Shown: positions 14,641-45,252 of the stretch, one piece after another
Layout: every line of letters begins with the position of its first letter
How positions within the stretch are numbered: the stretch's first letter is position 1
Assembly (NCBI GenBank): GCA_051294905.1
Contig: CM119372.1
Location: 62,001 to 126,000, forward strand
Origin: Botryllus schlosseri
Lineage: Eukaryota
Direction of reading: 5' to 3'
Length of the DNA stretch: 64,000 bases
Position numbers and translations under genes: made by a program
The notes under the pieces: generated by a model
What the model saw: the letters and a program-made list of their open reading frames with translations, nothing else
Databases searched by the model: none
Told to the model about the DNA's origin: nothing

Positions 14641-14713
14641 ATAAGTCTGATATCATGACACAGAGCGAGTCATGTCATTTCCATGATAAAATCCATGTTC
14701 ATTTTTTACAGTG

Positions 14714-15747
14714 TATATTATAAATTATTTTGCGAGTATTTACTTCAAACTTGCATGCGCCTCATACCAATATACCGAAAATGCGATGATATTCTTATGG
14801 AGCAGGGGCGGGCAACTTCTCCAGTCAGCGGGCCGGATTGCTGAATGGATACATTATTCGCGCATATATACAAGGAATAAATCGTATTTAATGAATGTAT
14901 TTCATCGACAGCAATATGTCACTTCAGAGTTATTTCTCGCCGATAATGACAGTACAATGTGGATTTGAGAACAGCATTGTCATACAGGCGCCGCCATGTC
15001 TGCATCTCTCTGATCAACTAAATCACGGTGCAATCCTTAATTAAGATTTTAAAGCGTTTGATAAGCTCGGTACCCAAAATTTACCACGATTTCAATTCAT
15101 TAGGGTTGAGTACATCGTAAATGTCGATAATGCAAGTCTTCTCGCTTCGACGAACTTACGCGTAAGCTCCACTCTCGCACGCTGCGCAGTGCGCACACCT
15201 ATATAATAACATACAGTCACTAAAATTTGACGTTTAGGCAAGTAGTGGGGAATCTCGGCAGACTGGGGCCGCGGGCCACATTATCATGCAAGACGGGAAA
15301 CTGTACGCGAGCCGGACAAAATCTCGTCGCGGGCCGCATCTGGCCCGCGGGCCGTATGTTACCCGTCCCTTTTATGGACTGTCCTAGATAACAAATCTGC
15401 TGACTATCTTATTTTGCTCGCACAAGCTGCAGAGTAGATGTAGACGGCAGCTCGCCACCGTGAACTAATAAACCTCACCAAAACAGACTCTGCGAAACTA
15501 TCACCAGGAATTAGATTCGCATCATGGCTAGTTCAAGCAAAAATGGCATTCGAATATCAATAATATAGGTGCTAGAAAAGGTACTATACTTATGATATTG
15601 AAGTATTTGAAAGTATGGAATATGTATCAAGTATGGTATGGAACAACGTTGCTATGGTATGGAAAATTGCAAGTGTGGTATGGAGAGAGTAAGGCAAGTA
15701 TGGAGTATGAAAAATTGTCGTTCCATACCATACCATACCATGCCCTG
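14714..15747 (-). mobile_element. Truncated (TATGG)n-subterminal hAT-type element carrying a nested hAT MITE (14803-15371)
   Basis: Terminus ccataccatgccctg at 15747; reverse complement of 28239-30396; nested MITE TSD ttatggag/ttatggac. Confidence 0.8.
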
Positions 15748-15869
15748 CCTATAACCCCAAGTACGTTCTGTTTCGGGTAAAAAATGGGCTGCATGCATGA
15801 GGCAGACAATAATTTCAAGTCACGTTTATTCAAAGTGATTCAAAACATGAATGAAATAAATGGATGATT

Positions 15870-16019
15870 TCAAAGCTCCAGGTGTTGGTCGAACAACCAC
15901 GAAGCGAGTTTGGCATTCCCTTCACTGTTCATGTTTTTGAGTGTGTTGTAATAATTGGCAATTTCCTTCGTGTCCTCGAGTTGATGATCCAAAAATTCGT
16001 GGACGATCATCTCGGCCAA
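15870..16019 (-). CDS. Ferritin H-like exon 7 (helices D/E and stop)
   Basis: ttatttcag|LAEMIVHEFLDHQLEDTKEIANYYNTLKNMNSEGNAKLASWLFDQHLEL*. Confidence 0.9.
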   Translation of the reverse strand: MAEMIVHEFLDHQLEDTKEIANYYNTLKNMNSEGNAKLASWLFDQHLEL

Positions 16020-19000
16020 CTGAAATAATCAGAAAGTTGCGTTTACAACTCGTTCTGCGTTCAGCGAAGACCCAATAACGAACCTCGACGTAGGCATAGC
16101 CAGCAACGAAACAATTTGGTTCCCCGCTTTCACAATTGCAGTCTGTGTAGTTGCTTGTTACCCTCTCTCCGGAATCGTGCTTGATGGTGATCAAAATCGG
16201 CTGAAAATAAGCAAGCTTGTAAATTCCGTGGAACGAATATACTTGAGCAGGATTGACGAGTTTGGCCAATGAATGAGGCATAGATGCTAGATCGCGCCAC
16301 AGCTCGGAAGCGCATTCATCAGCAAAATAAAGAGCTACAACTATATACAACAGCTTGGAGCGAAGCGCAGCTGCTGGCCCAAATACTGCGATTATCTCGT
16401 CAATTCCTTGGGCGAAACAATCTGTGATTTTGTTTTACCCAACAAAAGCACTACCTGCATTTTGCCTATTCAACGGGCGTTTTACCTTAATATCACTGAC
16501 GGGATATATTTACTGGCATAATTTGAGTAAATTCACAAAAACGAGCGTAAATCTAAAAAAAACATACTTGTAGTGCTGTTAGTGCTAAGCCAATTTCGAG
16601 GTATTATGCGAGCGTATTGCGTAGACGTCTATGGCATTCACGATTCACTTGAATCAGTGTAATCGGTCGACCATTAATCCGGAGATGTCGAGGTTGAACC
16701 CCATTCTCCGCCGGCGAATTTCACCAATATATGAAGCACCGAGCAAACTTGTAGGACGTCTCGTGAACATAAGACTTATGGTAGGCTACTTCGGAATTTT
16801 GAAAAATGACACAAATTTCTCGGCTCTGCCCTCATAATGTTGTCGGTTACCTGCGTGAGGCGAAGATCATCATCCTCCAATGCCAACAGGTCTTCGCAAT
16901 TGGATTCGCCGGTAAATTGTATGTTCGAAGCAGCCCTGAGTAAGAAATCAGTACCAGTTTATCAAGAATTTCGTCATTCCACACACCACAAGACTGCGAT
17001 ACAATGTAAAGATAGGTAGGTGTGGAAACAGCATGGAGTAGTCTTGGAAATCAGACACACATCTGGGCCTACGCGATAGGAGGCATGCACAGTGAATGAA
17101 ATATAAATGATAATACAAAAGGACAAGCGGAAAAATGGGGTGGTAGGTGATAGGAGGCGAGATCGATGTGTCAGGTCGTGGTCCGGTAAACTTGACGGCT
17201 GACTAGTAGGAAACGCGACGCGCTACAGACTACTCACTGGTGTAATTCTGTGAGTTTTCTAGTCACATGAGCCTCCAATTCCATCGCACACCGAAAAGCT
17301 TCCTTCACATCCATCGCTGTCTTGCAGCTACCTTCCTCATAAATCTAAAACGGTCGAAAATCATCAATTCTTCGATATCTATAGGCGGGTTTAATAAATT
17401 ATTCTAGGCATAGCAGGGCTGCGAATTTGTGCACAAGAGGCGTTCCTGCACTTTTTTGATCGTGGACGTCTTCTAAAATTGTAGGCGGTCGCGCGTGCCC
17501 CCAGAATTTCAGAAGCCAACGAGAGGAACGTCACTACATCAGACTGAACTCAATTTAGGTTATTACATGCCTAAAATAAGATCACTGGTGACTAGACAAG
17601 GTTGTCAGTCCTACTCATGGCCTAATTCTCGAAGGATAAGCTGTTTTTGTAATTTCTTGAAGTATCACTTTTTCAGGGATCCCCTAAAACTAGTTCGCAG
17701 ACTCCAGTTCAAGAACCCCTGGCGTATAATAAGGTTTTTCATCCTTCCGACCAATCAATCGGACTTGTACTAACCACTATATAAATCTAGTTAGTTGATG
17801 TTCAGCTAACTACTGGCTTTTGGAGTAGTTCTAGATACGGAATTCGAAGATCGGGTAGTTTCAGTTCTATCTCTAGTTTGAGTTGCACATTTTGAAATTA
17901 TTTAGTGCTAGAGCAAGCGGGGAAACACATGTCGCCGTTTGGCGTGAATTGTGATACCGGTCCTGCTGTGTGATGTTATTGCAGCCATTGCTATCTCATA
18001 GTATCTAGGGTTACCATCAGAGCTGTGGAGTCGGTAAATTTTACCACCGACGTCTACTCCTACTCCACACATCTTCAATGGACCGACTCCGACTCCGACT
18101 CCGACTCCGGCTCCGGCTCCGGCTCCGGCTCCCCCTCCGACTCCGACTCCGACTCCCACCCCGACTTCAACAGTATTACCAATTTACTTCGAAAATTATA
18201 TGCCACTGTGACGGTTAAATGACTACGCTTTATAATTAATAACAATTATGTCATGAAAACTCTGTGTACAACTTTACAGTGTGCAGTCATGACCTGGTCG
18301 TGCGAAGCACGAAATTTGTTCAAAGGTAATGAATAAACTCGATCAATAAATATATTACTTGCAAAATTGGGGATCGCCTCTGTATAGCAATGGGCTCATT
18401 TGGCAAGACAGGATTATTTCGCGTTTTAGACATAGCAATATCGACGGTTTCTGTGAACATGCCTCTGTCATTTTGTGCAAATGTTTCATCACCGACGATC
18501 TCGCTTCGAACGCACAAGCGAAGTCGCATGTTGTACGACACGTTCTCTCAATTGCGAGTATAGTTGGACTCAATTCTGTAAATTACGCGTATTTCTAATT
18601 TCCGAGGGTTTGCAATACTAAATGCATGAAATGTGACAATAAATCGCGCGAAGTGCGAAGAAAAATTTCAAGTCAAATAAATCTGCTACGGAATATTCTA
18701 CATTATGGTCGATTTACGAAGATCTGCGATGAATGTGGCTGGCCCCTGGTTACGGCAATGCGTCGAAGCTGATGTTTTATTTATCATCAAATTTCGCGGT
18801 CAGGCTAATCAAATTTTGTAAGGCCTTGCAATTTACCTGATGTTATATCTAATTTCAAGAATTACCTCGCAGGCCACACAAAACCTTCTAGCGGGCCACT
18901 TTCGGCTTGTGGGGCACGGTCTGGCCGCCCCTGATCTGTATCGCTAATAATAAAAGGGATTGATGGTACATAAAAATCATATTCTAGTTATTATTAGTAA

Positions 19001-20114
19001 TTCAAAGTTATCTTCGAAAGCATTTTTTCTCAAGATCAAAAGGTTGGGGTCGGAGTCGAAATCGGGTCATTTTCACAAACTCCGACTCCGACTCCAGTTA
19101 GTATTTTTTCCACGACTCCGACTCCAGCCACCACAGTTTTCACGTCTCCGACGCCATCAATTGAAAATTAGCTCAACTCCCGACTCCGACTCCACAGCCC
19201 TGGTTACCATACGTCCTCCTTCAGGAGGATTTGTCCTCCTTTTTCAGGTTTTTGAAAATGTCCTCCGAGGACGCCTAAATGTACTCCTTTTTGAGATTTT
19301 GTCCTCTTTTTTGATAATTTTGGTTGGATGTATAGTGCCAAGTTCGACTGAGTTACAATAAATCAGCACTGAAGTAACGCTCCGTTATCAACCATTTTCA
19401 TTTTTTTTAGTCAACCGACCACGGAGTGGGGAAAATTTACCACTTTTTCGAAATTTTCCTCCGGTATTTTCAGTTTGAAAATTTTCAAGTGTCTTCCTTT
19501 CCCGATTCCAAAATATGGTAACCCTATAGTAATCACTACTTATAAACGTTTACACGTGTTTTCTAGTAGTTCTGAAACTAAGTTTATTTTTAAAATGCGC
19601 AACTAGAACTACTCCAAAACCAGCAGCTAGTTGTCACAGGTAGTTTAACAAGCCTGTAAACGAAAATCTGACATACTGTGACAAGACTCATTTCAACAGT
19701 TCCGCCTCGTTGATTCTGATATTGAATGAACCGTTCCGCATGGGCAAGTTCTTCCATCGATTTCTGGCGGAAGTATTTCGCTACTTTTGGCAAGTATTGG
19801 GAATGGCGTTCGAACATTTGTGCCTGTCAAAAAAAATCTGCTATCGCTGCAGGGTGAAATATGAATCCAAGCTCACCAATTTCTGGTAAGTGTAGTGCCC
19901 CGTCAACTCCGTCCCAATCTGCAGATTGATCCGATTGTTTAAATCGTTGTCATGGCATCTGAATACCTAAATACAACAAAGATACATTTTCGGATATCCA
20001 ATTCCGGTGACTATCCATTATTCTGCTCAAACCGCGGATACTCACCATTTCGCAATCGCGGCCCGAGCATGTCTGCAAGACAAATGACAAGGCAAATACG
20101 AACAAAATCCTCAT
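15870..20114 (-). CDS. Secreted ferritin, heavy-chain-like (ferroxidase centre intact), 7 coding exons, 254 aa
   Basis: Exons 20114-20046, 19966-19877, 19823-19677, 17344-17238, 16935-16851, 16200-16084, 16019-15870; all introns GT-AG and phase-compatible (765 nt). Signal peptide MRILFVFALSFVLQTCSG; INLQIGTELTGHYTY; SMEELAHAERFIQYQNQRGG; AMELEAHVTRKLTELH; EFLDHQLEDTKEIA; WLFDQHL. AATAAA at 15830-15825. Confidence 0.9.
16084..16200 (-). CDS. Ferritin H-like exon 6 (second half of the C-D insertion)
   Basis: ttttcag|PILITIKHDSGERVTSNYTDCNCESGEPNCFVAGYAYVE|gt; phase 0-0. Confidence 0.72.
16851..16935 (-). CDS. Ferritin H-like exon 5 (first half of the C-D insertion)
   Basis: Phase-2 acceptor completes the Gln split by exon 4; AASNIQFTGESNCEDLLALEDDDLRLTQ|gtaacc. 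Confidence 0.8.
17238..17344 (-). CDS. Ferritin H-like exon 4 (helix C)
   Basis: ttttag|IYEEGSCKTAMDVKEAFRCAMELEAHVTRKLTELH..|gtgagt. Confidence 0.88.
18006..19526. mobile_element. hAT MITE (tagggttaccat TIR) whose left TIR is interrupted by a (GACTCC)n hAT MITE at 18018-19202; lies in ferritin intron 3
   Basis: Inner element has exact TSD GTTACCAT (18010-18017, 19203-19210); outer element ends atggtaacccta. Confidence 0.85.
19677..19823 (-). CDS. Ferritin H-like exon 3 (helix B)
   Basis: AQMFERHSQYLPKVAKYFRQKSMEELAHAERFIQYQNQRGGTVEMSLVT|gtatgt. Confidence 0.93.
19877..19966 (-). CDS. Ferritin H-like exon 2 (helix A)
   Basis: VFRCHDNDLNNRINLQIGTELTGHYTYQKL|gtgagc. Confidence 0.9.
20046..20114 (-). 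CDS. Ferritin H-like exon 1 (signal peptide)
   Basis: MRILFVFALSFVLQTCSGRDCEM|gtgagt. Confidence 0.85.
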
Positions 20115-21350
20115 TTTCAAATGAATGCAAGCACAAAAAATGATGAACTGGAAAGGCAATCACAATCGCTTAGTTGCAACGTTTATTCAGATTAGTCATT
20201 TCTAAACATCACACGAATGCGATACAATGAAAAGTTAGGAAGGTGTCAAAACAACTTGGAGTAGTCTTTGAAATTAGACATCCACCTGGTCCTAGGCGAT
20301 GTAAAGAGGAGAAATTCTCACAGGATGAAAAGTATAAGATAATACAAAAAGACAAGCGACAGAGTGTTGCGGTCGATTCCACTCCCGGAAAGCTACATGG
20401 ACTAGAGCGCAGTCTTCTTACTGTGAATCATAGCCAGTCCGCTAGTTTACCGGACCACGAGCCGGCACATCCACCTCGCCTTCCGACACATGCCCCCTAT
20501 TTTTGTCGCCTGTCGTTTCATATTACCTTCTTTTACTTTTCATCCCGCCGCCTGCATGCCTCCTTTATATATATATATACACCTGCAACGCTAGTCCGAA
20601 AGCAACCGTGTCCCTAACCATTATCGGAACTCCAAAACAACTACAGCTTCAGTCACCATGAAGAACTAAGAACCTAACTGACATATGCCCGGCCATAAAC
20701 AAGCGCCCTTTTCCCATCGACCAATGCTACGACTGATCGGTCGCTCTGTTTACGCCAGCACAGTTAAATTGCTGTTGCGCTACGACGTCAGCAAATACGA
20801 AATCACGCGCTTCTAATCAGGCCATCACAAAGGTCGTTCTCTTTGTCTTGCACAATATCGCTTTTTACGATTGCATCAGTACAAATACAACTTGCAATAG
20901 TGACAATGTGAAAACGTAGATAGTCGTAAAGCATCGAGGCCGAGGCGGATTTGCTTTGTGTAGTGTAATCTCGCGTCGGCGTTCTAATAGGGCATAGTCC
21001 AGTCGCGTAATAGGAAAACTTGGCGCCATTCTCAACTTATAACTGCTAGACCAGACTATTGTAGGCTACAGTTTAGCAGAACGGATCTTTCGATATCTTT
21101 ATGCGCTCACGAGATCCAGTCCAACTGGTATTTTCATCACGTGACAACGCGATTCGGCCTTTACGGAAGGTACGATTATGAAAGTGGATTTTCGACCCAA
21201 CCAAATTAAGCAACTTGTTTGCTTGCGGGCAGAGGTCGAGCATAGTTTGTGTGTTTGGAACAGAAGTTGATTCGCGACGTAACCGAACGTATATGTCAAC
21301 TCGAAGGGTACACGAGATGCAATCTGTACTGGGAGAAGGGCAGTCCCGTA

Positions 21351-21875: not shown

Positions 21876-24818
21876 ATCCCAAATAAAACGAGTCTCAGAT
21901 TTTACATTGAAGAAGCGGGTGACAGATAATGATTGCTATAATGCTGGGGTTTCCATTTCCATACTTTTTATTCGTGTTTGTAAATTAGATACCAAATATA
22001 TTCAAAATCAACGGCGCAGTTGAAGAGTTTGAGGCATGGCTTCTCTGCATCTCCTCATTCTACTTTTGGTTACTTCGCAAGCTGTAAGTCTTGTAATCTG
22101 CGTTATTTCATTCATCCACGACAAGCTCCGTTTTCTGTCAGATATCCAATCATCCAATTCAAACGGAAACGTTCACTTTTGATAACCGCGATTGCCGAGA
22201 TGGTTACACTGTTACGCTCAACGGCTCTTCTGTCCGTGTGAATAACCCACACCATTGCGAATGGGACCAGTGAGTGAATTTCTGGTATTACTTGTAATTC
22301 AGTCGGTGAAGCATGGTATGTCGCGTCCCAGAAGCAGCCCCTAATGCAGGGTTATTAACCGGTGTTTCATAGAACCACAGTCCTGGCGGTTCCATGGAGG
22401 TCGCGATATAGGGCTGGGCAAAATCGGGTACCTGAGTGATTCGAATATGAATCCCGTATTATGCATCGAGTCAAGTCGAGTAATCGAGTATCACCTATTA
22501 TCACGTCATAACGGAATGTAAAAGTCAAATTTCAAATTTGTACCGTTTATGCGACCACGAAGAATATAATGCCTGTTATCCATCTCATAAATGATACTTT
22601 GGTAATGATGGCTCAATCACTAGTAGAATTGCAACTTTTGTGGTCGTAAGTCATGTGTCGTGGCTCAGTTCTTGGGTTCGAAATCGAAACCACGTCTTTC
22701 TGAAGTGCCGATTTTATCTCTACTATTTTAAACCAATTTGCAGTTAAGCGATTGGTATCACGCTGTTGAGTTTCGACCAAACAATACAATGAAACTTTCC
22801 AAGGTGAAGCCTTGCAGAACAGAAGTCACACTGATCAATAAATATTCATCATCATGTATTTTGTTTTGTGTGTTATAATGATTGCACCGAGGTCATGTCA
22901 ACGAATTTACGTAGCCTCGCACTTCTTCATTGTTATTCTAACAAATGCTACGCTAGCACTCGCACGTTCTAGTATAGGCCCAAACTTTTCTTCAAAATAA
23001 TCCACGTTAAATTTGACCCAATATGGATTACTCCGTCACCGCTAAGAGCGGCTAAACATCGGTTGTGGCTCATAATACGAAATGAAAATCAACTGCTCTT
23101 ATTCAAAATTTCATGCGTCATATTTTGTGATACGTTTGTTGATATACAATGCTCTTTCCAATTCTCTACTAATTGCTGACGATTACCCCTAACGAGTGTC
23201 GACCGAAAATATTCGGGTTCATTTCAATATGAATATACTATTCAATTGTATATTGAAGTTCTGTGTCTCCAAGACGTTCTCCATCACAATATATATATTC
23301 TATATATATATATATATATCAATTTCAATTCAATTCAATTTATTGCAAAAATTTCATCATTTCAATGCACCACTAGACTGCGATACAAAGAAAGATAGGA
23401 AGGTGTCGAATCGACTTGGAGTAGTTTTCAAAATAAGACAAACACCTGGCCTGGGCGATTTAGAAAGGAGGCATGCACTGCACACTGTATGAAAAGTAAA
23501 AGAAGACAATATAAAAGGACAGGCGATAAAAAGGTGGTATGTGTAGGAACGCGAAATGGATATGTCCGACCGTGGTAACTGATATTGATTCAGTAGAAAT
23601 TGTTTGTATTTCGACTTGAATATGAAAGGTCAGAACCACCTGAAATCGGTGCAATTATAGAACAGATTCCATAACGGGCTCTGACATTTTGATTTGCGAA
23701 AACTGTCGCCTGGGCTCTGTAATACGCTCGCGTATTTAATTGTTCACCAGAAATCAGGGAGTCACCAATTTACAGCAATTCCGGACTCGTTGGCTTATCA
23801 TACACGTAAAATTGTCAACACGAGTACAGTGTATGATCGCCATTTACGCACGTATTCCCTATATTGGATTGGTGCTATATTGGTAAATTTGAAAAGTAAA
23901 ATCCAAACTCACGCTTTTTATTTCACTCCCCTCCTTATTTTTCGGCTCGCTACGCGCCTTCTGTCACAAAGTGCAATGAAATAGGCATGGTCGAAAATAT
24001 ACTAAACTATGTTCAATGTGACATAAAACTGGCTTTGATTCTTTGTGGTCGCATAAAAGATACATGTGCCTTGTCTATGCTTGAGTTAGAGATCAAAACG
24101 GTGTATATTGAGAGAAGCAGTATTGTAGAACCGCAATAACCGAGTCTTTTTGCGTCTCGACATTCAGGAAAACTCATCACGAAGGAGTGAAAATAAAAAA
24201 GATTGAATCATTGGTTGCCAACGTGACAGTTCCCAGACCACCGAACAACGAGAACATGACATACTTATTCGAACTCGCCAAGCATAAGGGCAGGAAAGAC
24301 AGAATCTTAGCGACCGCAAAGATTCTTTTCTCGGTGAGTGGGCCTTATATGTGGATCGAGCTTGAGGCCAATTGTACCAGCCATGGTTTTCTCTTATACT
24401 GGAACAATGTTCAGTATTTTTTGACTCGATATGGTGTTGTTGAGCAGTGTTGCGAACCCGTTAACTTTCAAAAATCTGATTCCATAGACTACTCCAAGTC
24501 GCTTCGACATCTTCCTGTCTTTTCATTGTATCGCATTTTTGTGGAGTATTGAACTGATAAAAATTGCTAATAAATCAATGATGATGAAAACAAAATTAAC
24601 CCAAAACGTAATTACGGCTAATGTATACCGGGCAAAAGTAGTTATCGAAAGCCTAATTTAATCCTACCTTATAGATATTAGACGTGCTATACGTGATTCT
24701 ATTGAAGTTTCCGCATGGCGAGGCGCCTTTAAAAACGCTGTGTCGTTTCTCCTTAAATTCCAAAACCAGCGATAATTCGGGAAGACTAGTGTATCGAGCA
24801 GACAAAAATGATTACACG

Positions 24819-26263: not shown

Positions 26264-26347
26264 GAGTACAGCAGCGAAGGATTGCGAGAACTTGCAACAG
26301 ATGTCGTCCATGCGCTCATCACGCTTCATTACGACTTGGTTTTTCTG
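26264..26347 (+). CDS. Ferritin L-like helix A exon
   Basis: tttcag|EYSSEGLRELATDVVHALITLHYDLVFL|gttagt. Confidence 0.78.
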
Positions 26348-29300
26348 GTTAGTACTGGCTGTTTGTTGTCCATCTACGCATCTTTAGACATATGCGACGT
26401 AAACGAGCGTAAGTGTAGGTGTATTCGCGTCTAATTAGTTGCGGACTCCTTCGAGTTTTGTGGGCGGCTGTGGACCTGGACCCCAAAAACTGCAGAAGCT
26501 GATGACGAAACGAAAGTCTACGCTTTGTGACATAATCTTGACTTGAATTAATTGACATCTAACTCCTAACTGTTGACCATAGGCATGTTTTTTTGACATT
26601 TGAAGAACTAGGTGCCAAAACTGTCAAAATTTTAAAATGCGAAGAACAAGACATTAAGAAAAATTGGTTTTTGACAATTTTTTTAATAAAAACGTAAGCA
26701 GGAATTGAAATGATCACGTTTCGAACGAGTAAACATATGTGTGTGTAAAGCCGGGATTCTTGAACTTGGGTCTGTGAATGATAGCCGGCCCATTCATTGT
26801 ATTTTCAGTCCCATCGGCATCAGAGGTCCTCATGCTTCCACCCGAAAGTCGCCGGTTATTTCCGAAATTTAGCGAAAGAGAAGGTCTCGACTCTGGACGC
26901 GGTCATAAAGTTCATTCATGAAAAGCAGGTAGAAAAAAAATTTGTTTCCTTCGTTCTGTCACCTCACCACCAGACTTGTTTAAACTACAAATCTAGTTGA
27001 TTGATCGTCAACTAGCTACTGGTTTTTTAGTAGTTCTAGTTGTGAACTTTAAAAGTTGATATATAGTTCTATGGTTGTGGTTGCGTATTTTGAAAAGTTT
27101 GTAGTTTTAGTTCTAGTTTCGGAGTTCGAGAAAAGTGATTTCGAAAATCCAGCAGCTTTTACAAGTATGCTTTACATATTCTCTTCTAGGCAACCGAAGA
27201 TGCAACCACCGATTGCCCGACCAATTATGTGGCAATGATGGAAAAAGACGGTTTTAAGGAAACGGTTATGTTAAGAGATCTGGGAGACGACGCCATGATT
27301 TCTTCATTTCGAAAAGCCTACGAGTTCGAAACGAATCTCGCCCGTACCCTCACTCAGGTTTTTCATCACTCGGAAAATAATAAAGAAATTGAGGTGAGAG
27401 CCAGAGTTGGAGGAATTGTAATTTGTAATTGAGCTGAATGTATAATTACATTTTTTCATGTGATTGTAATTGTAATTGAAGCATTTTCATTTTGGTAATT
27501 GTAATAGTAATTGTAATTGGATAAAATTTTTGCCTAATTACAATTACATTACATTGTTATTGAGACCTGAGAAGCACAACACAAAATAATTGACGCTTCT
27601 TCGTTTTACGATCAACAGCTAACCAGTGCTCACCGTGACACTAATAACTGTCTCCCATCAACATGTCAAAATTTATAAACATTAAAATAATTGTTTTTCG
27701 CGTTGGTATTGGTGTTGTGGGTGCGGGATATTAGGGTTCCTACGCATGCCACTTCCTTTCCATCGCTTGCTTTTCTGTTATCTTATGTTGCTTTTCATTC
27801 ACTGTGTACATACCTCAGTGTTGGGATCAAGTCACGACCTTCGAGTCACGAGTCATCTCGAGTCATTGCACATTTTGACTCGAGTCAAGTCAAGTCGATC
27901 GATTTTCGAAGGTGACTCGAGTCATGTCAAGTCACTCGTTTTTTGTAGGTGACTCGTGTCAAGTCGAGTCAAGTCGGGTCAAGTCATGAGTCCAGTCAAG
28001 ATTCAAGTCACGATTCAAGTCAAATGGAATTTTCGAAGTATGAATGATGATGCAAAGTCAGTACATTTTGCTAACTGGGTGAAAGACGGATTAATTGGCC
28101 ATTTATCGAATATAAAGTTAAATATACATGCAAAAAGGCGTTGTATCGCTCACGCACACGAAAAGCTGCTAATAAAGTACGTGGGTAACTGCGCATATGC
28201 TACATGCTACAGACTGGTAATATCAGCCAACTTAGTGGCAGGGCATGGTATGGTATGGTATGGAACGACAATTTTCCATACTCCATACTTGCCTTACTCT
28301 CTCCATACCATACTTGCAATTTTCCATACCATACCAACGTTGTTTCATACCACACTTAATACATATTTCATACTTTCAAATAGTTTCATGTCATAAATAT
28401 AGTAGCCTACCTTTTTTACCACCTATATTATTGATATTCGGGTGTCATTTTTGCTTGAACTAGCCATGATGCGAATCTAATTCCTGGTGATAGTTTTACA
28501 GAGTCTGTTTTGGTGAGGTTTATTAGTTCACGGTGGTGAGGTGCCGTGTACGTCTACTCTGCAGCTTCCGCGAGCAAAATGAGATAGTCAGCAGATTGTT
28601 ATCTAGGACAGTCCATAAAAGGGACGGGTAACATACGGACCGCGGGCCAGATGCAGCTCGCGACAAGATTTTGTCCGGCTCGCGTACAGTTTCCCGTCTT
28701 GCATGATAATGTGGCCCGCGGCCCCAGTCTGCCGAGATTCCCCACTACTTGCCTAAACGTCAAATTTTAGTGACTGTATGTTAGGGTTACCATATTTTTA
28801 TGAAGCAAATTCCGGACACTCTTTAGCGCCCACTAGCGGATTTTAAAAGGAGGTGCAACACATTGACCAACAATATGACGTCACACTAGCAAAGCATTGC
28901 CCATCGACTGTATACACTATGCAGGAATGGAGTGGAACATAGTTCATGAATTGGGCCATCTGTAATGTCAGCTCTGCTGATTGCTACTTGCTAGGGTCTG
29001 CAATAGATTCCTCCACGGGCCGGATGAAATCATCTGGCGGGCCGTGTCTGGCCTGCCATGATTGTGTTTGACAGCCCTGTCGGTGTGGCTATCTATTTAT
29101 GTGTTTTCATCAGGTCCGAAACATCATTTTTTCTGCCTCTTCCGCCCAAAAAAGCACTGATCTTGGGCCCAACATAGGGTAGTCGATGTAAGTTGTTGGG
29201 CACTTACTATATGCATTTGGCTGTTAAATTTTATGAATGAATTCTGTCAATAATATTGATTCTTCCATATATTAGGCTACTATAAAATACACCAGCAGTT

Positions 29301-32300
29301 TGCACATCCCGTGATTTCCAACCTTTTATGGTCGCGACCTCATTTCCGACTTGAAAATGTTCCGTGGCAGAGCTCAAAACTTGATAAACTGATTACTAAA
29401 AAAATGCCGCTTGCCCAAACATACTCACGGCCTAGGAAGCTGATTACGTCTAACATCATCGCGATCCCCAGATAAAGGCGAACGACCCCAAGATTTGAAA
29501 CCACCGTCTGTGACTGAAGCATCCAATCGGCCTTAACCAACTCTAGCAATATACCGTTAGCTTATAATTGCGATTGCAATCAGACTTCTTTCAGTAAATG
29601 ATGGGTATTTATATTTATTTTGATAGCATCTTTTGACGAAGGTGGTGCCTGGTGCCCATACTAATATCATTATACGTTGCATTAACTCGCGCGTGGCGCG
29701 AAGAACAATTTTGAATAGCATAAATCTGCTTGAAAATAATATTGTTTATGTTGATTTACGAAAAACTTTTGAGCCTGCTTCAAGCCTTCAAAATTCCGGA
29801 CATTTAGGCATATTTTAGAAATTCCTCCCGGACGCAGATTTTTCAGTGAAATTCCGGACATGTCCGGGAAATTCCGGACGTATGGCAACCCTACTGTATG
29901 TTATTATATAGGTGTGCGTGCTGCGCAGCGTGCGAGAGTGGAGCTTACGCGTAAGTTCGTCGAAGCGAGAAGACTTGCATTATCGGCATTTACGATGTAC
30001 TCAACCTTAATGAATTGAAATCTTGATAAATTTTGGGTACCGAGCTTATCAAACGCTTTAAAATCTTAAATAAGGATTGCACCGTGATTTAGTTGATCAG
30101 AGAGAAGCAGACATGGCGACGCCTGTATGACAATGCTGTTCTCAAATCCACACTGTACTGTCATTATCGGCGAGAAATGGCTCTGAAGTGACATATTGCT
30201 GTCGATAAAATACATTCATTAAATACGATTTATTCCTTGTATCTGTGCGCGAATAATGTATCCATTCAGCAATCCGGCCCGCTGACTGGAGAAGTTGCCC
30301 GCCCCTGCTCCATAAGAATATCGTCGCATTTCCGGTACATTGGCATGAGGCGCATGCAAGTTTGAAGTAAATACTCGCAAAATAACTTATAATATAGGCG
30401 CACCAAAAAATGTCCGAGCTATTACAGGCGATCAATACTGCAGCGATCTGCGTGATTGGTTGAGGATAGCGTGGTGAGAATTTCAAACTATATCCACCCC
30501 ACTCCCTGATCTATACTCCTAATGTGAGATCGTTTGAAACATGGCCATTAAGATATCTCGCTATGTAAATAGTATAAATGTGAGGACAATATTTCAGAAG
30601 AAATGTAATTATCAATCACATTGAGCAATTAGTACGTTGTATCATGATTGCTTGTAAGCTGTCGTCACTCAAGGAATGAGGTAGTTGGAGTAGCCCACAT
30701 TACCAATTATTGCATCACACGATAGACTTTGCTCGGAGACGTAGTGCTAGATTCAATACGGCCGTAAACCAAACTTTACGCTGATTGGTCGAGAGACAAT
30801 GGCCATGGATACATCGCACCAACGGAGGACGCTGCATTTACCTAAGCCAAGGGTCGGCAACCTACGGCCCGCGGGCCGGATCCGGCCCGCCAAGCGAAAT
30901 CGTCCGGCCCGCGACATGATAATTAGTTATCACAAGAATACGGGCCGCCGCTTCATAATGAGTTTCAATCTGCAGTGCAGCGCTGCATGAAAAAAATGCG
31001 ACATTGCTACGCTATAATAGTAGCCTACATCGTATTAGTCTATTGTTACGCCATGAAACGAAGGTGGTTGAAGTAGGAGATGGAGATAGACTATAGACTG
31101 GATCAGTGCTTATCAATCGGGTGTATCTCGCAACCGAAGGTGTTCCATCCTTTTTAAAGGGCTGATCACTCTAACGGGGCGTGACAATAAAGGTGTTCTT
31201 CCTTAGCTTCAAGAGCGCTTGGAGCATCTCAGACGCAATGACGGAATCTCAAACTATTCAATTATAGATAACTAGCCTCCGTATGTTAGTTAGCCTGTCT
31301 ATAGTTTGATTTTCCAGAAGGCATTGTGTGCCAATACAAAAAACCAGAATAGTGTTTTGGCCACAATGGTGAAAACTGTTAATATGATTTTGTCTCATCA
31401 ACATTATCAGTTACGCCAGATATTACTAGATGCAGAGAATCAATATGGCGATGTCATGTTGGCCTATATCTGTCATGTTCATTGTTCGCTCATTGAGTCG
31501 AGCAGCTATGCTTACACGAGTGTATGATCTGCGAAATGAAATAGCAACTTTCCTCGAAAATACAAATATCGCCGACTCATAATCTTGTAATCGAAAATGG
31601 GTATCTCATCTTGCTTTCCTGGTACATTTAACGTCACATCTGAACAAATTGAACTTGCAACTTCAGGGGGAAAACAACTACATACATGAGATGTTGAGGC
31701 GCATTCAAAACAAATCTGTGACTCTGGAAATGTCAACAGTACAACGAAAATTATGCTCACTTTCCTATACTGGAGGAGAGAAAACCTAGTACCAACACTA
31801 CATTTGTAACTGTGATACGAAATTTAACTACTGAATATTCACCCGCTTTTCCGACATTCCTTGTCTACAAAATGAATTCTGACTATTCAGTATACTCTGT
31901 TTAATATGGACGCCAATACCATTGCCTGAAAATTTCAAATGGGCTTTTCTGAAATGCGATGCAGTTGAATTGAATGACAAATTTCATACAAAGAGCATAT
32001 CGCTGCATGACTTTGACAAAGAGTACGTTCTTGAAATTGGTCTTTATCCCAGCTTGACCAGCAATGCAAAAAAATTGCATCGATTTTTGAAAGCACGTAC
32101 GCATGTCAACAATAGTTTTGAACAATGAAATTCACGAAGAGCAAGCTAAGATCACGTATTTCGGACGTCCATTTTGAATATAGGGTCTGATTCTTGTTTC
32201 ATCTGACTTGTTACCAGAAGTTGAAAACCTTTCACAAAGCAAGCTGCGTCAATTGTCACAATTATTCTGTGTCGTTGAAGTGTAAATACATGTGTCTTCG

Positions 32301-44300: not shown

Positions 44301-45252
44301 TTTCCATTGACCAAATAAGGTACAAATTAAACCTGAGAAGTCATTCATTAAGCTATGACATTATAATAGCACGTAGTACTCAAATCCAGAGTTGGAAATT
44401 AATTGTAATTGTAATTGTAATTGGGCTGAATGTAATTAATTCATTTTTTCATGTAATTGTAATTGTAATTGAGCTGAAATAATGTAATTAATCCAACTCT
44501 GGTGAGAACTCGCTAAGTCGGCAGACTCGGACGACTAGAATATTATAGCTGTCTAATGAGACTAATTAGACCGAAATGTCGGTAATCTCATTCTAATCTA
44601 ATTTGTTAAATGTTTATGCTCTCATTTTAATTCTAATCTATACTTTGATTTTCGCGAAAATGCTAAAGGATAACTGTATGGCGCGAAACGATCCAAGCTT
44701 GCTGCACATACATTTGCCATTCTCATGCTGATGAGAATTAACTCTGAGTTGATATGAATTGAACTTGATTAATGTTGTATATATTTACCAAGGAATACGA
44801 CCGCGGCCATTGATTGCACTTTTATCGACAGAATGTACACGTCAAGGATACAGAATAAAATATCCTCGATGACCAATATGTCGCCATTACTAATCCCAGT
44901 AACACTTTGATTACACGGAGATATCAAATAGGCTAATATGCGTTGCTTGATTTTATTGACTGTGTGTCATATTACTGTTATTATTAGGGTTTTAATGACT
45001 CAAGTCGGACTCGAATACCAAATTTTATTTGACTCGACTTGACTCGAGTCATTGCGCATGAGTCGACCATGTCATTTGCATTGAGTACACTTTTTTCAGC
45101 TCTCAGAGTTCATATCTGCCGAACTACTTCCTCAAGTCACGAAAAACATCGGATCTCTCAAAAACGTGATCGAGACAGCGCTTGGTGGCGCTCATTCCAC
45201 GTCCGATCGACACTTGAAAGAATTTTTATTTGATAAATACCTTGATATCTAA
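26264..45252 (+). CDS. Divergent ferritin paralogue lacking most ferroxidase residues (light-chain-like); 4 confident exons, N-terminus uncertain
   Basis: Exons 26264-26347, 26809-26928, 27190-27393, 45100-45252; all GT-AG, phase 0. Aligns to the neighbouring ferritin (ITLHY/LTGHY; PKVAGYFR/PKVAKYFR; FRKAYEFE/FRCAMELE; EFLFDKYL/SWLFDQHL) and shares two intron positions with it. AATAAA at 45252-45257. Confidence 0.82.
26809..26928 (+). CDS. Ferritin L-like helix B exon
   Basis: ttttcag|SHRHQRSSCFHPKVAGYFRNLAKEKVSTLDAVIKFIHEKQ|gtag. Confidence 0.82.
27190..27393 (+). CDS. Ferritin L-like BC loop and helix C exon
   Basis: ttctag|ATEDATTDCPTNY...MISSFRKAYEFETNLARTLTQVFHHSENNKEIE|gtgaga. Confidence 0.82.
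28782..29893. mobile_element. hAT MITE nested in the MITE at 28619-30307
   Basis: Exact TSD CTGTATGT; the empty site is visible in the paralogous copy at ~15205-15225. Confidence 0.92.
30848..32442 (+). mobile_element. Deleted hAT (Charlie/GTF2IRD2-like) element with decayed transposase, copy 1
   Basis: TIR caagggtcggcaacc / ggttgccgacccctg; exact TSD ACCTAAGC; remnants such as VKTVNMI, QYGD and LRNEIATF. Confidence 0.9.
32760..35487 (+). mobile_element. Truncated R4/Dong-like (restriction-like endonuclease) non-LTR retrotransposon
   Basis: AINSLAVPVLRYSFG..RLYIPRKKGGRGL; CRMC..ETVAHLMSGC zinc knuckle; RHN; NRPD..IE..K nuclease motif; (TAA)n tail; TSD ATTTGCTCCT (32750-32759, 35488-35497); stops and frameshifts present. 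Confidence 0.88.
33728..34683. mobile_element. TA-target MITE (Tc1/mariner/pogo-type) inside the LINE
   Basis: TIR ggg.agatgtggtaccgatggatca; TA TSD; removing it restores the LINE frame (ATEY-TWRHN). Confidence 0.9.
37537..40754 (+). mobile_element. hAT element (cagggttgtaa TIR) with a transposase dimerisation-domain remnant at ~38025-38270
   Basis: Exact TSD TCCTCGAC; FW..RKDEY..L....SIQASNATVERVSSRCG motif. Confidence 0.88.
38584..39733. mobile_element. hAT MITE with ggtcaaaa subrepeats
   Basis: TIR tagggcgattttttt; exact TSD ATAATTAC. Confidence 0.88.
41361..42322. mobile_element. TA-target MITE, inverted second copy of 33728-34683
   Basis: Same TIR, TA on both flanks. Confidence 0.9.
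42927..44054 (-). mobile_element. Free copy of the cagggccgtaac-family element; another copy starts at 62141
   Basis: Homologous to the nested segments 5021-5979 and 9883-10860; termini degenerate. Confidence 0.7.
45100..45252 (+). CDS. Ferritin L-like last exon (helices D/E and stop)
   Basis: ttttttcag|LSEFISAELLPQVTKNIGSLKNVIETALGGAHSTSDRHLKEFLFDKYLDI*; AATAAA overlaps the stop. Confidence 0.85.
   Translation, partial: LSEFISAELLPQVTKNIGSLKNVIETALGGAHSTSDRHLKEFLFDKYLDI

Follow-up and report, generated by a model that had tools for sequence, protein, structure and literature searches.

A constitutively spliced insertion in the C-D turn of a putatively secreted Botryllus schlosseri ferritin, apparently typical of an undescribed tunicate subfamily

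The C-D turn of the ferritin subunit rings the outer mouth of the three-fold channel, and few parts of animal ferritins are as strongly conserved as this turn and the acidic lining of that channel. Passages of PMC8395497 describe the short turn with its D126 as highly conserved across most of 533 invertebrate ferritins, the Asp/Glu pair of the three-fold channel is described as key to iron uptake (in passages of PMC9785301), and a channel role is given for the three-fold axis in part of PMC11719527. A window of 64,000 nt from Botryllus schlosseri (contig CM119372.1 of assembly GCA_051294905.1, positions 62,001 to 126,000, forward strand) contains a ferritin gene in which, as a sequence-only reading had pointed out, 68 residues separate LTELH of helix C from LAEMIV of helix D, compared with 10 in human H ferritin (alignment numbering). 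Does this insert, about 58 residues beyond a normal turn, belong to the mature transcript, how widely is it shared, and what might it do at this site? Its content is as that reading had described it, with four cysteines (151, 187, 189 and 196), an LEDDD run and an NYT sequon at residue 183.

The insert-bearing gene consists of seven exons on the minus strand with AG/GT ends, and its spliced frame encodes 254 amino acids. Its features are as follows (window positions).

Trans-splice acceptor, 20148..20149, minus strand: 479 RNA reads with a loose end at 20149.
Exon 1, 20046..20114, minus strand: start codon and hydrophobic, signal-peptide-like segment; junction with 490 RNA reads.
Exon 2, 19877..19966, minus strand: helix A with ferroxidase ligands E43 and Y50 (human E27 and Y34).
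Exon 3, 19677..19823, minus strand: helix B with E77, E78 and H81 (human E61, E62 and H65) and the invariant R92; Pfam Ferritin, 33.3 bits.
Exon 4, 17238..17344, minus strand: short B-C loop with invariant C109, then helix C with invariant C121 and with E126 (human E107).
Exon 5, 16851..16935 (85 nt), minus strand, first part of the insert: end of helix C, variable acidic loop and short helix with near-invariant L162 and Q166; restores the phase; junctions with 481 and 493 reads; assigned from conservation and the model of the Styela orthologue.
Exon 6, 16084..16200 (117 nt), minus strand, second part of the insert: three predicted beta-strands, then the conserved Y203-x-E205 immediately ahead of helix D; three of the four cysteines and the NYT sequon; junctions with 493 and 758 reads.
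Exon 7, 15870..16019, minus strand: helices D and E, with the rewritten pore positions E208, V211 and H212, and H217 and Q218; stop codon.

Raw RNA reads of four runs, drawn from two studies, were mapped to positions 15700-20300, and in the bulk run X23 13,108 of 12.9 million records matched. The six junctions from exon 1 to exon 7 were covered in this run by 490, 657, 754, 481, 493 and 758 reads, and thus include the three junctions around the insert that had been predicted from the sequence (17238>16935, 481 reads; 16851>16200, 493; 16084>16019, 758). The two 3'-most junctions were also found in three single-cell runs, with 14-51 reads for 16851>16200 and 313-421 reads for 16084>16019. Exon 5 had been proposed to be obligatory for the phase, and a frame test agrees: the frame shifts without exon 5 or without both insert exons. 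The frame is kept if exon 6 alone is skipped. A joint that skips exon 6 was absent from the 15 strongest of the 28 RNA joints, and a canonical isoform made by exon skipping was rejected on this basis. An artefact of mis-splicing or intron retention was rejected as well, since every junction was read and the intron depth was 0 in bins 16316-16777. The insert is genuine, and its splicing into the C-D turn is constitutive.

At the 5' end, the loose read ends beyond 20149 match the 'Chordata 1' spliced leader consensus (as given in Table 1 of PMC3795323). The leader sequence is absent from the 64-kb window, and 254 copies are present elsewhere in the genome. Both this leader and the nearest named relatives (see below) are those of an ascidian. 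The mature 5' UTR has 33 nt without an iron-responsive element (IRE) pattern. The insert gene therefore lacks the combination expected of a cytosolic, IRE-regulated ferritin, namely an IRE and no signal peptide. A crude hydropathy test detected a hydrophobic N-terminus here and in 46 of the 47 full-length relatives, and from this sequence feature we infer that the protein is probably exported via a signal peptide. The same genome encodes a conventional cytosolic ferritin (L001, contig C16; 934-960 and 1006-2421) of 173 aa with a C-bulge/CAGUGA stem-loop upstream and a C-D turn of 8 residues. Rfam gave no IRE match on L001-L003, although L001 shows the IRE pattern. With such a separate cytosolic ferritin in the genome, the secreted one would be free to specialise. 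The last intron of L001 lies just before helix D, at the same place as in both ferritin genes of the window.

The protein has the profile of a ferritin: with Pfam Ferritin (PF00210, cut-off 24.5 bits), exon 3 scored 33.3 bits and the Styela orthologue 70.7 bits. All seven ferroxidase-site residues (E27, Y34, E61, E62, H65, E107 and Q141 in human numbering) are present, each being kept in 50-53 of 53 relatives, and the intact ligands suggest ferroxidase activity. An AlphaFold2 model of the Styela orthologue, which is 54% identical to the Botryllus protein, was built from a 56-row alignment and reached a mean pLDDT of 85.3. A four-helix bundle A-D with a short helix E is predicted for this orthologue, and the core of the model matches human H ferritin with a TM score of 0.85 by target and a Foldseek E value of 1.8e-9. 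In the model, helix C runs to residue 141 and is followed by a loop, a short helix (161-164), three strands (168-174, 177-182 and 192-198) and helix D from 199, and confidence is modest (63-70) in the loops 141-160 and 181-190. Botryllus exon 6 modelled alone (pLDDT 81.8) gave strands 2-7, 13-17 and 31-37, the same three as in the Styela model, and the two predictions share one alignment and its relatives and are not independent. Exon 6 is thus predicted to form a sheet that runs straight into helix D, and exon 5 its tether.

A borrowed known domain was considered as the origin of the insert and was set aside. Exon 6 had no match to PDB sequences at E<=10, none to Pfam over the cut-off and none by Foldseek at E<=0.001 (best E 3.3), and the Styela insert had no usable match in the ESM Atlas. 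These blanks are weak because the unit, a 39-residue sheet, is so small. A prediction of a three-copy complex of the Styela protein gave a median score of 0.36 compared with 0.27 for a control, which allows no verdict either way.

To what extent is the insert shared? A HMMER search with exon 3 against 1.84 billion representatives yielded 76 matches; among the highest-ranking were four full-length proteins (248-258 aa), two of them named (Styela clava and Clavelina lepadiformis). A profile of these retrieved 54 proteins among 3945 candidates. Five of the 54 are named and all of these are ascidian, from Styela, Clavelina, Ciona (two) and Phallusia; the other 49 are unnamed transcript or metagenome proteins. 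Word-index searches with single exons returned no matches and were blind also to the orthologues later recovered by profile, and are therefore uninformative. The alignment comprises 53 of the 54 proteins (a 100-aa fragment was omitted); 51 of these extend over both flanks and helix D, and the other two end too early. A C-D turn insert of 55-86 residues (median 66) was found in all 51. As a control, 31 ferritins from outside the family were examined; 12 were without a flank, and 18 of the remaining 19 have 8-11 residues in the turn, the sole exception being an internal duplication of helices B-C. The ascidian entries are:

Styela clava, XP_077967255.1
Clavelina lepadiformis, XP_076824181.1
Ciona intestinalis, XP_026690845.1/F6VNH0
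Ciona savignyi, H2YJB8
Phallusia mammillata, A0A6F9DCG6

These entries bear automatic names of the type 'ferritin heavy chain(-like)', both Ciona proteins being 'ferritin heavy chain'. They are orthologues, at most 54% identical to the Botryllus protein, and have a C-D insert of 58-63 aa, the same anchors and the same pore changes; they differ in having 1-4 cysteines per insert, and the insert of Botryllus schlosseri measures 68 aa. A species-specific accident was rejected, the insert being common to several ascidian genera. In a quick tree with 25 other ferritins, insert columns included, the family fell on one side of a branch with a support of 99; this tree contained no named insect or mollusc secreted ferritin, and its placement of the paralogue described below is unreliable. 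The profile search returned no ordinary ferritins, so that distant insert-bearing relatives outside the tunicates may exist. The possibility had been raised that the insert was already documented. This holds for its presence in RefSeq and UniProt ascidian entries and not for a description, since full-text searches of a collection with few subscription journals gave, among the papers listed, no account of a secreted tunicate ferritin or of a C-D insertion; PMC8395497 made use of the Ciona genome, and the protein may be listed in its supplement. Apparently, the insert-bearing proteins form an undescribed tunicate subfamily of secreted ferritin. Two members are extended at the N-terminus, P0136 by EGF domains (Pfam EGF, E 1.5e-11) and P0122 by a Cys-rich segment; these may be true fusions or chimeras of the assembly.

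Within the insert, conservation is concentrated on a few anchors: L162 and Q166 (52/53 each), Y203 (51/53) and E205 (49/53) are near-invariant, and in the family alignment one hydrophobic strand follows Q166 and another precedes Y203. Compared with ten chosen relatives, the insert is 16-38% identical and helices A-C are 40-68% identical. The features that had suggested a disulfide-bonded, glycosylated module are not shared. Among the 51 relatives, the insert has no cysteine in 4, one in 25, two in 7, three in 6, four in 8 and six in 1; a sequon is present in 8 and a run of three acidic residues in 8. A conserved four-Cys or glycan module was thus rejected on the Cys and sequon counts. Net charge of the insert is -10 here, with a median of -4, and is 0 or positive in 6 of the 51 inserts. 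Outside the insert, C109 in the B-C loop and C121 in helix C are invariant (53/53 each) and likely form a disulfide.

The sequence-only reading had placed the insert at the three-fold pore, and the pore region is indeed altered by family-wide substitutions in its lining. The register was taken from the alignment with human H ferritin; human residues 124-128, and the functions of H118, C130 and T135, follow the accepted assignments. In human numbering, D126 is replaced by Y (51 Y and 1 F of 53), D131 by E (51), T135 by H (51/53) and E140 by H (50/53). C130 is replaced by A, S, E, G or T, mostly A, and E134 by S, T, A or V, an acid being found at this position in none of 51 relatives. Thus, where a canonical three-fold channel has D131, E134 and a short turn with D126, the Botryllus protein has E, V and Y and a 68-residue turn. 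This counts against the protein being a 'canonical H ferritin', not against it being a 'ferritin'. Helix D carries new near-invariant residues in the region 212-222, namely H212, H217, D221, T222 and K223; judged from the sequence, these are candidates for a metal transit path along the inner face that is peculiar to the family.

Profile, fold and ferroxidase residues identify the insert-bearing protein as a ferritin; among known systems, it resembles the secreted ferritins of molluscs and insects in lifestyle, not in insert position. In snail yolk ferritin the insertion is located in the B-C loop. The mollusc secretory and yolk ferritins (Lymnaea, Biomphalaria, chiton sFer) share with it a signal peptide, a length of about 250 aa and one large insertion; the snail gene is without an IRE, and the chiton subunits have a Cys-rich loop. 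In Botryllus, the hydrophobic N-terminus and the lack of an IRE are found as well. However, the large B-C insertion of the molluscs, present also in the chiton proteins (in the part of 10.64898/2026.10.23.761458 consulted), is replaced by a near-normal B-C loop and a C-D insert with a predicted beta-sheet, and the two insertion sites are therefore distinct, as had been claimed. The insect HCH/LCH ferritins (12:12 heteropolymeric cage with inter-subunit disulfides, as in Trichoplusia ni; head-to-head genes of Aedes) are likewise secreted and have extra cysteines. They pair a ferroxidase-bearing gene head-to-head with a ferroxidase-poor partner, as the Botryllus DNA may also do, and in the ESM Atlas the nearest matches by feature are arthropod ferritin clusters (0.92-0.94). 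We know of no C-D domain of 55-86 aa in insects. The Aedes HCH carries an IRE, whereas the mRNA of the Botryllus insert gene carries a spliced leader; passages of PMC5751084 describe the head-to-head genes, the 12:12 tetrahedral cages and this IRE. Vertebrate H ferritin shares the four-helix bundle (TM 0.85 by target, Styela model) and all seven ferroxidase-site residues, but has a 10-residue C-D turn, and its D126, C130, D131, E134, T135 and E140 all differ from the residues found here.

A second ferritin gene lies head-to-head with the insert gene on the plus strand, so that an H-like/L-like arrangement is present in the DNA, the partner being known from DNA only.

Candidate exon 1, 22036..22083, plus strand: signal-peptide-like segment, head-to-head with the insert gene; sequence only.
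Candidate exon 2, 22142..22269, plus strand: Cys-bearing N-terminal extension with a phase misfit to the main acceptor 26264; sequence only.
Exons 26264-26347, 26809-26928 and 27190-27393, plus strand: helices A-C; open frame; match to the family profile, E 2e-12; DNA only.
Last exon, 45100..45252, plus strand: helices D and E, after a 17.7-kb intron; DNA only.

Candidate exon 2 ends in phase 2, so that it could be joined only to the alternative acceptors at 26272 or 26275 or to an exon not yet seen. By profile alignment of the DNA, the paralogue has lost five of the seven ferroxidase-site residues (E27L, Y34L, E62K, H65T and Q141V-type), and its B-C loop is lengthened and bears cysteine. The 10-residue turn that had been attributed to this neighbour is obtained, at the DNA level, if exons 27190-27393 and 45100-45252 are joined directly. 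No insert-like exon was found between 27393 and 45100, scanning for splice sites revealed no convincing further exon of the paralogue, and the paralogue exons had no match in the PDB.

What the insert does can be approached from its position; the sequence-only reading had suggested receptor binding, gating or metal selectivity. Tentatively, and as not quite an even bet, we favour a beta-sheet collar at a remodelled three-fold pore that would govern iron passage in a circulating carrier, because a conserved base is combined with a variable, mostly acidic surface and a changed lining beneath. From ferritin geometry, the insert would sit at the outer mouth of the three-fold axis, where three 58-residue units rooted at the C-D turns would crowd together around the channel. 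The conserved base (L162, Q166, Y203 and E205) would take the place of the canonical turn with D126 and, together with the new lining of E208/H212, might control the ease of iron passage in a cage circulating in blood plasma; the outer loops, which vary, would be free for lineage-specific disulfides, glycans or docking surfaces. Consistent with a collar, the pore positions change together with the insert, which measures 55-86 aa in 51 of the 53 relatives compared with 8-11 aa in 18 of 19 other ferritins, and the splice junction reads, the predicted three-stranded sheet leading into helix D and the kept ferroxidase ligands point in the same direction. However, insert and pore changes co-occur as one evolutionary event and not as a repeated correlation, the single-chain models carry no coordinates relative to the three-fold axis, so that the position at the pore is inferred, and the full-length model is that of the Styela protein (54% identical), the predictions not being independent. 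In addition, secretion rests on the hydropathy test, and 6 of the 51 inserts are neutral or positive in net charge. The poorly conserved surface would equally suit a tolerated appendage or a species-specific docking site.

Such a docking site is possible, if somewhat doubtful, as the main role of the insert. It would serve receptor binding or tissue targeting for uptake of circulating ferritin, e.g. by oocytes or blood cells, as a tunicate counterpart of the mollusc B-C insert, with the pore changes being incidental. The conserved scaffold with its hypervariable surface agrees with this, and the EGF domains of P0136 suggest that the family acquires extracellular modules. A four-Cys motif in the chiton B-C loop was proposed as a receptor site (in the part of 10.64898/2026.10.23.761458 consulted), and in a snail the oocytes take up a yolk ferritin whose insert has 42 aa (passages of PMC10799875); yet the chiton proposal is itself a prediction, and docking leaves the family-wide change of the pore lining unexplained. 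By analogy with insect HCH/LCH, the insert might instead act in assembly: by trimerising, it would gather the subunits that bear the ferroxidase site at three-fold axes of their own, within a 12:12 cage shared with the partner that lacks the insert and most ferroxidase residues. The head-to-head paralogue with its 10-residue turn and ferroxidase losses fits this idea, as does the link between head-to-head genes and 12:12 tetrahedral cages in insects (passages of PMC5751084), but we regard it as unlikely: the paralogue is seen on DNA only, its 5' exon has a phase misfit, and other tunicates yielded no orthologue of it. It is very unlikely that the insert is a glycosylated loop, stapled by disulfides, with no role beyond stabilising the secreted protein, or merely a tolerated, near-neutral ornament. 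The Botryllus insert has four cysteines, as do those of 8 of the 51 relatives, among them the three with the highest overall identity, and three non-synonymous allelic variants fall at residues 190-194; however, 29 of the 51 relatives have only 0 or 1 insert cysteine, and the retention of the insert in 51/51, never below 55 aa and with near-invariant L162, Q166, Y203 and E205, argues for a required folded unit.

A clade that has a folded domain and a His/Glu lining in place of the conserved turn and acidic lining, while the ferroxidase site is kept, represents a natural experiment on iron entry and exit. That a chordate ferritin carries what looks like a classical export signal also bears on blood iron transport before the vertebrates, whose ferritin subunits are described as having no leader peptide (in passages of PMC11719527). 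For protein engineering, the family offers a naturally tolerated insertion site for 55-86 residues, presumably adjoining the three-fold axis. The proposals are directly testable with the Ciona or Styela proteins in public databases.

Further observations concern the genome around and beyond the insert. The 254 copies of the 22-base leader motif are scattered over chromosomes with no single array; two copies were inspected, and just one of them has a GT donor behind it, as an SL RNA gene would. Exon 6 of the insert gene is single-copy in the genome. Its alleles show at least seven differences within 16119-16195, four of them synonymous and three non-synonymous, the latter all at residues 190-194 between the last cysteines. 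By eye, a near-identical composite repeat is present at 14700-15780 (minus strand), 3' of the insert gene, and at 28230-30380 (plus strand), within the long intron of the paralogue.
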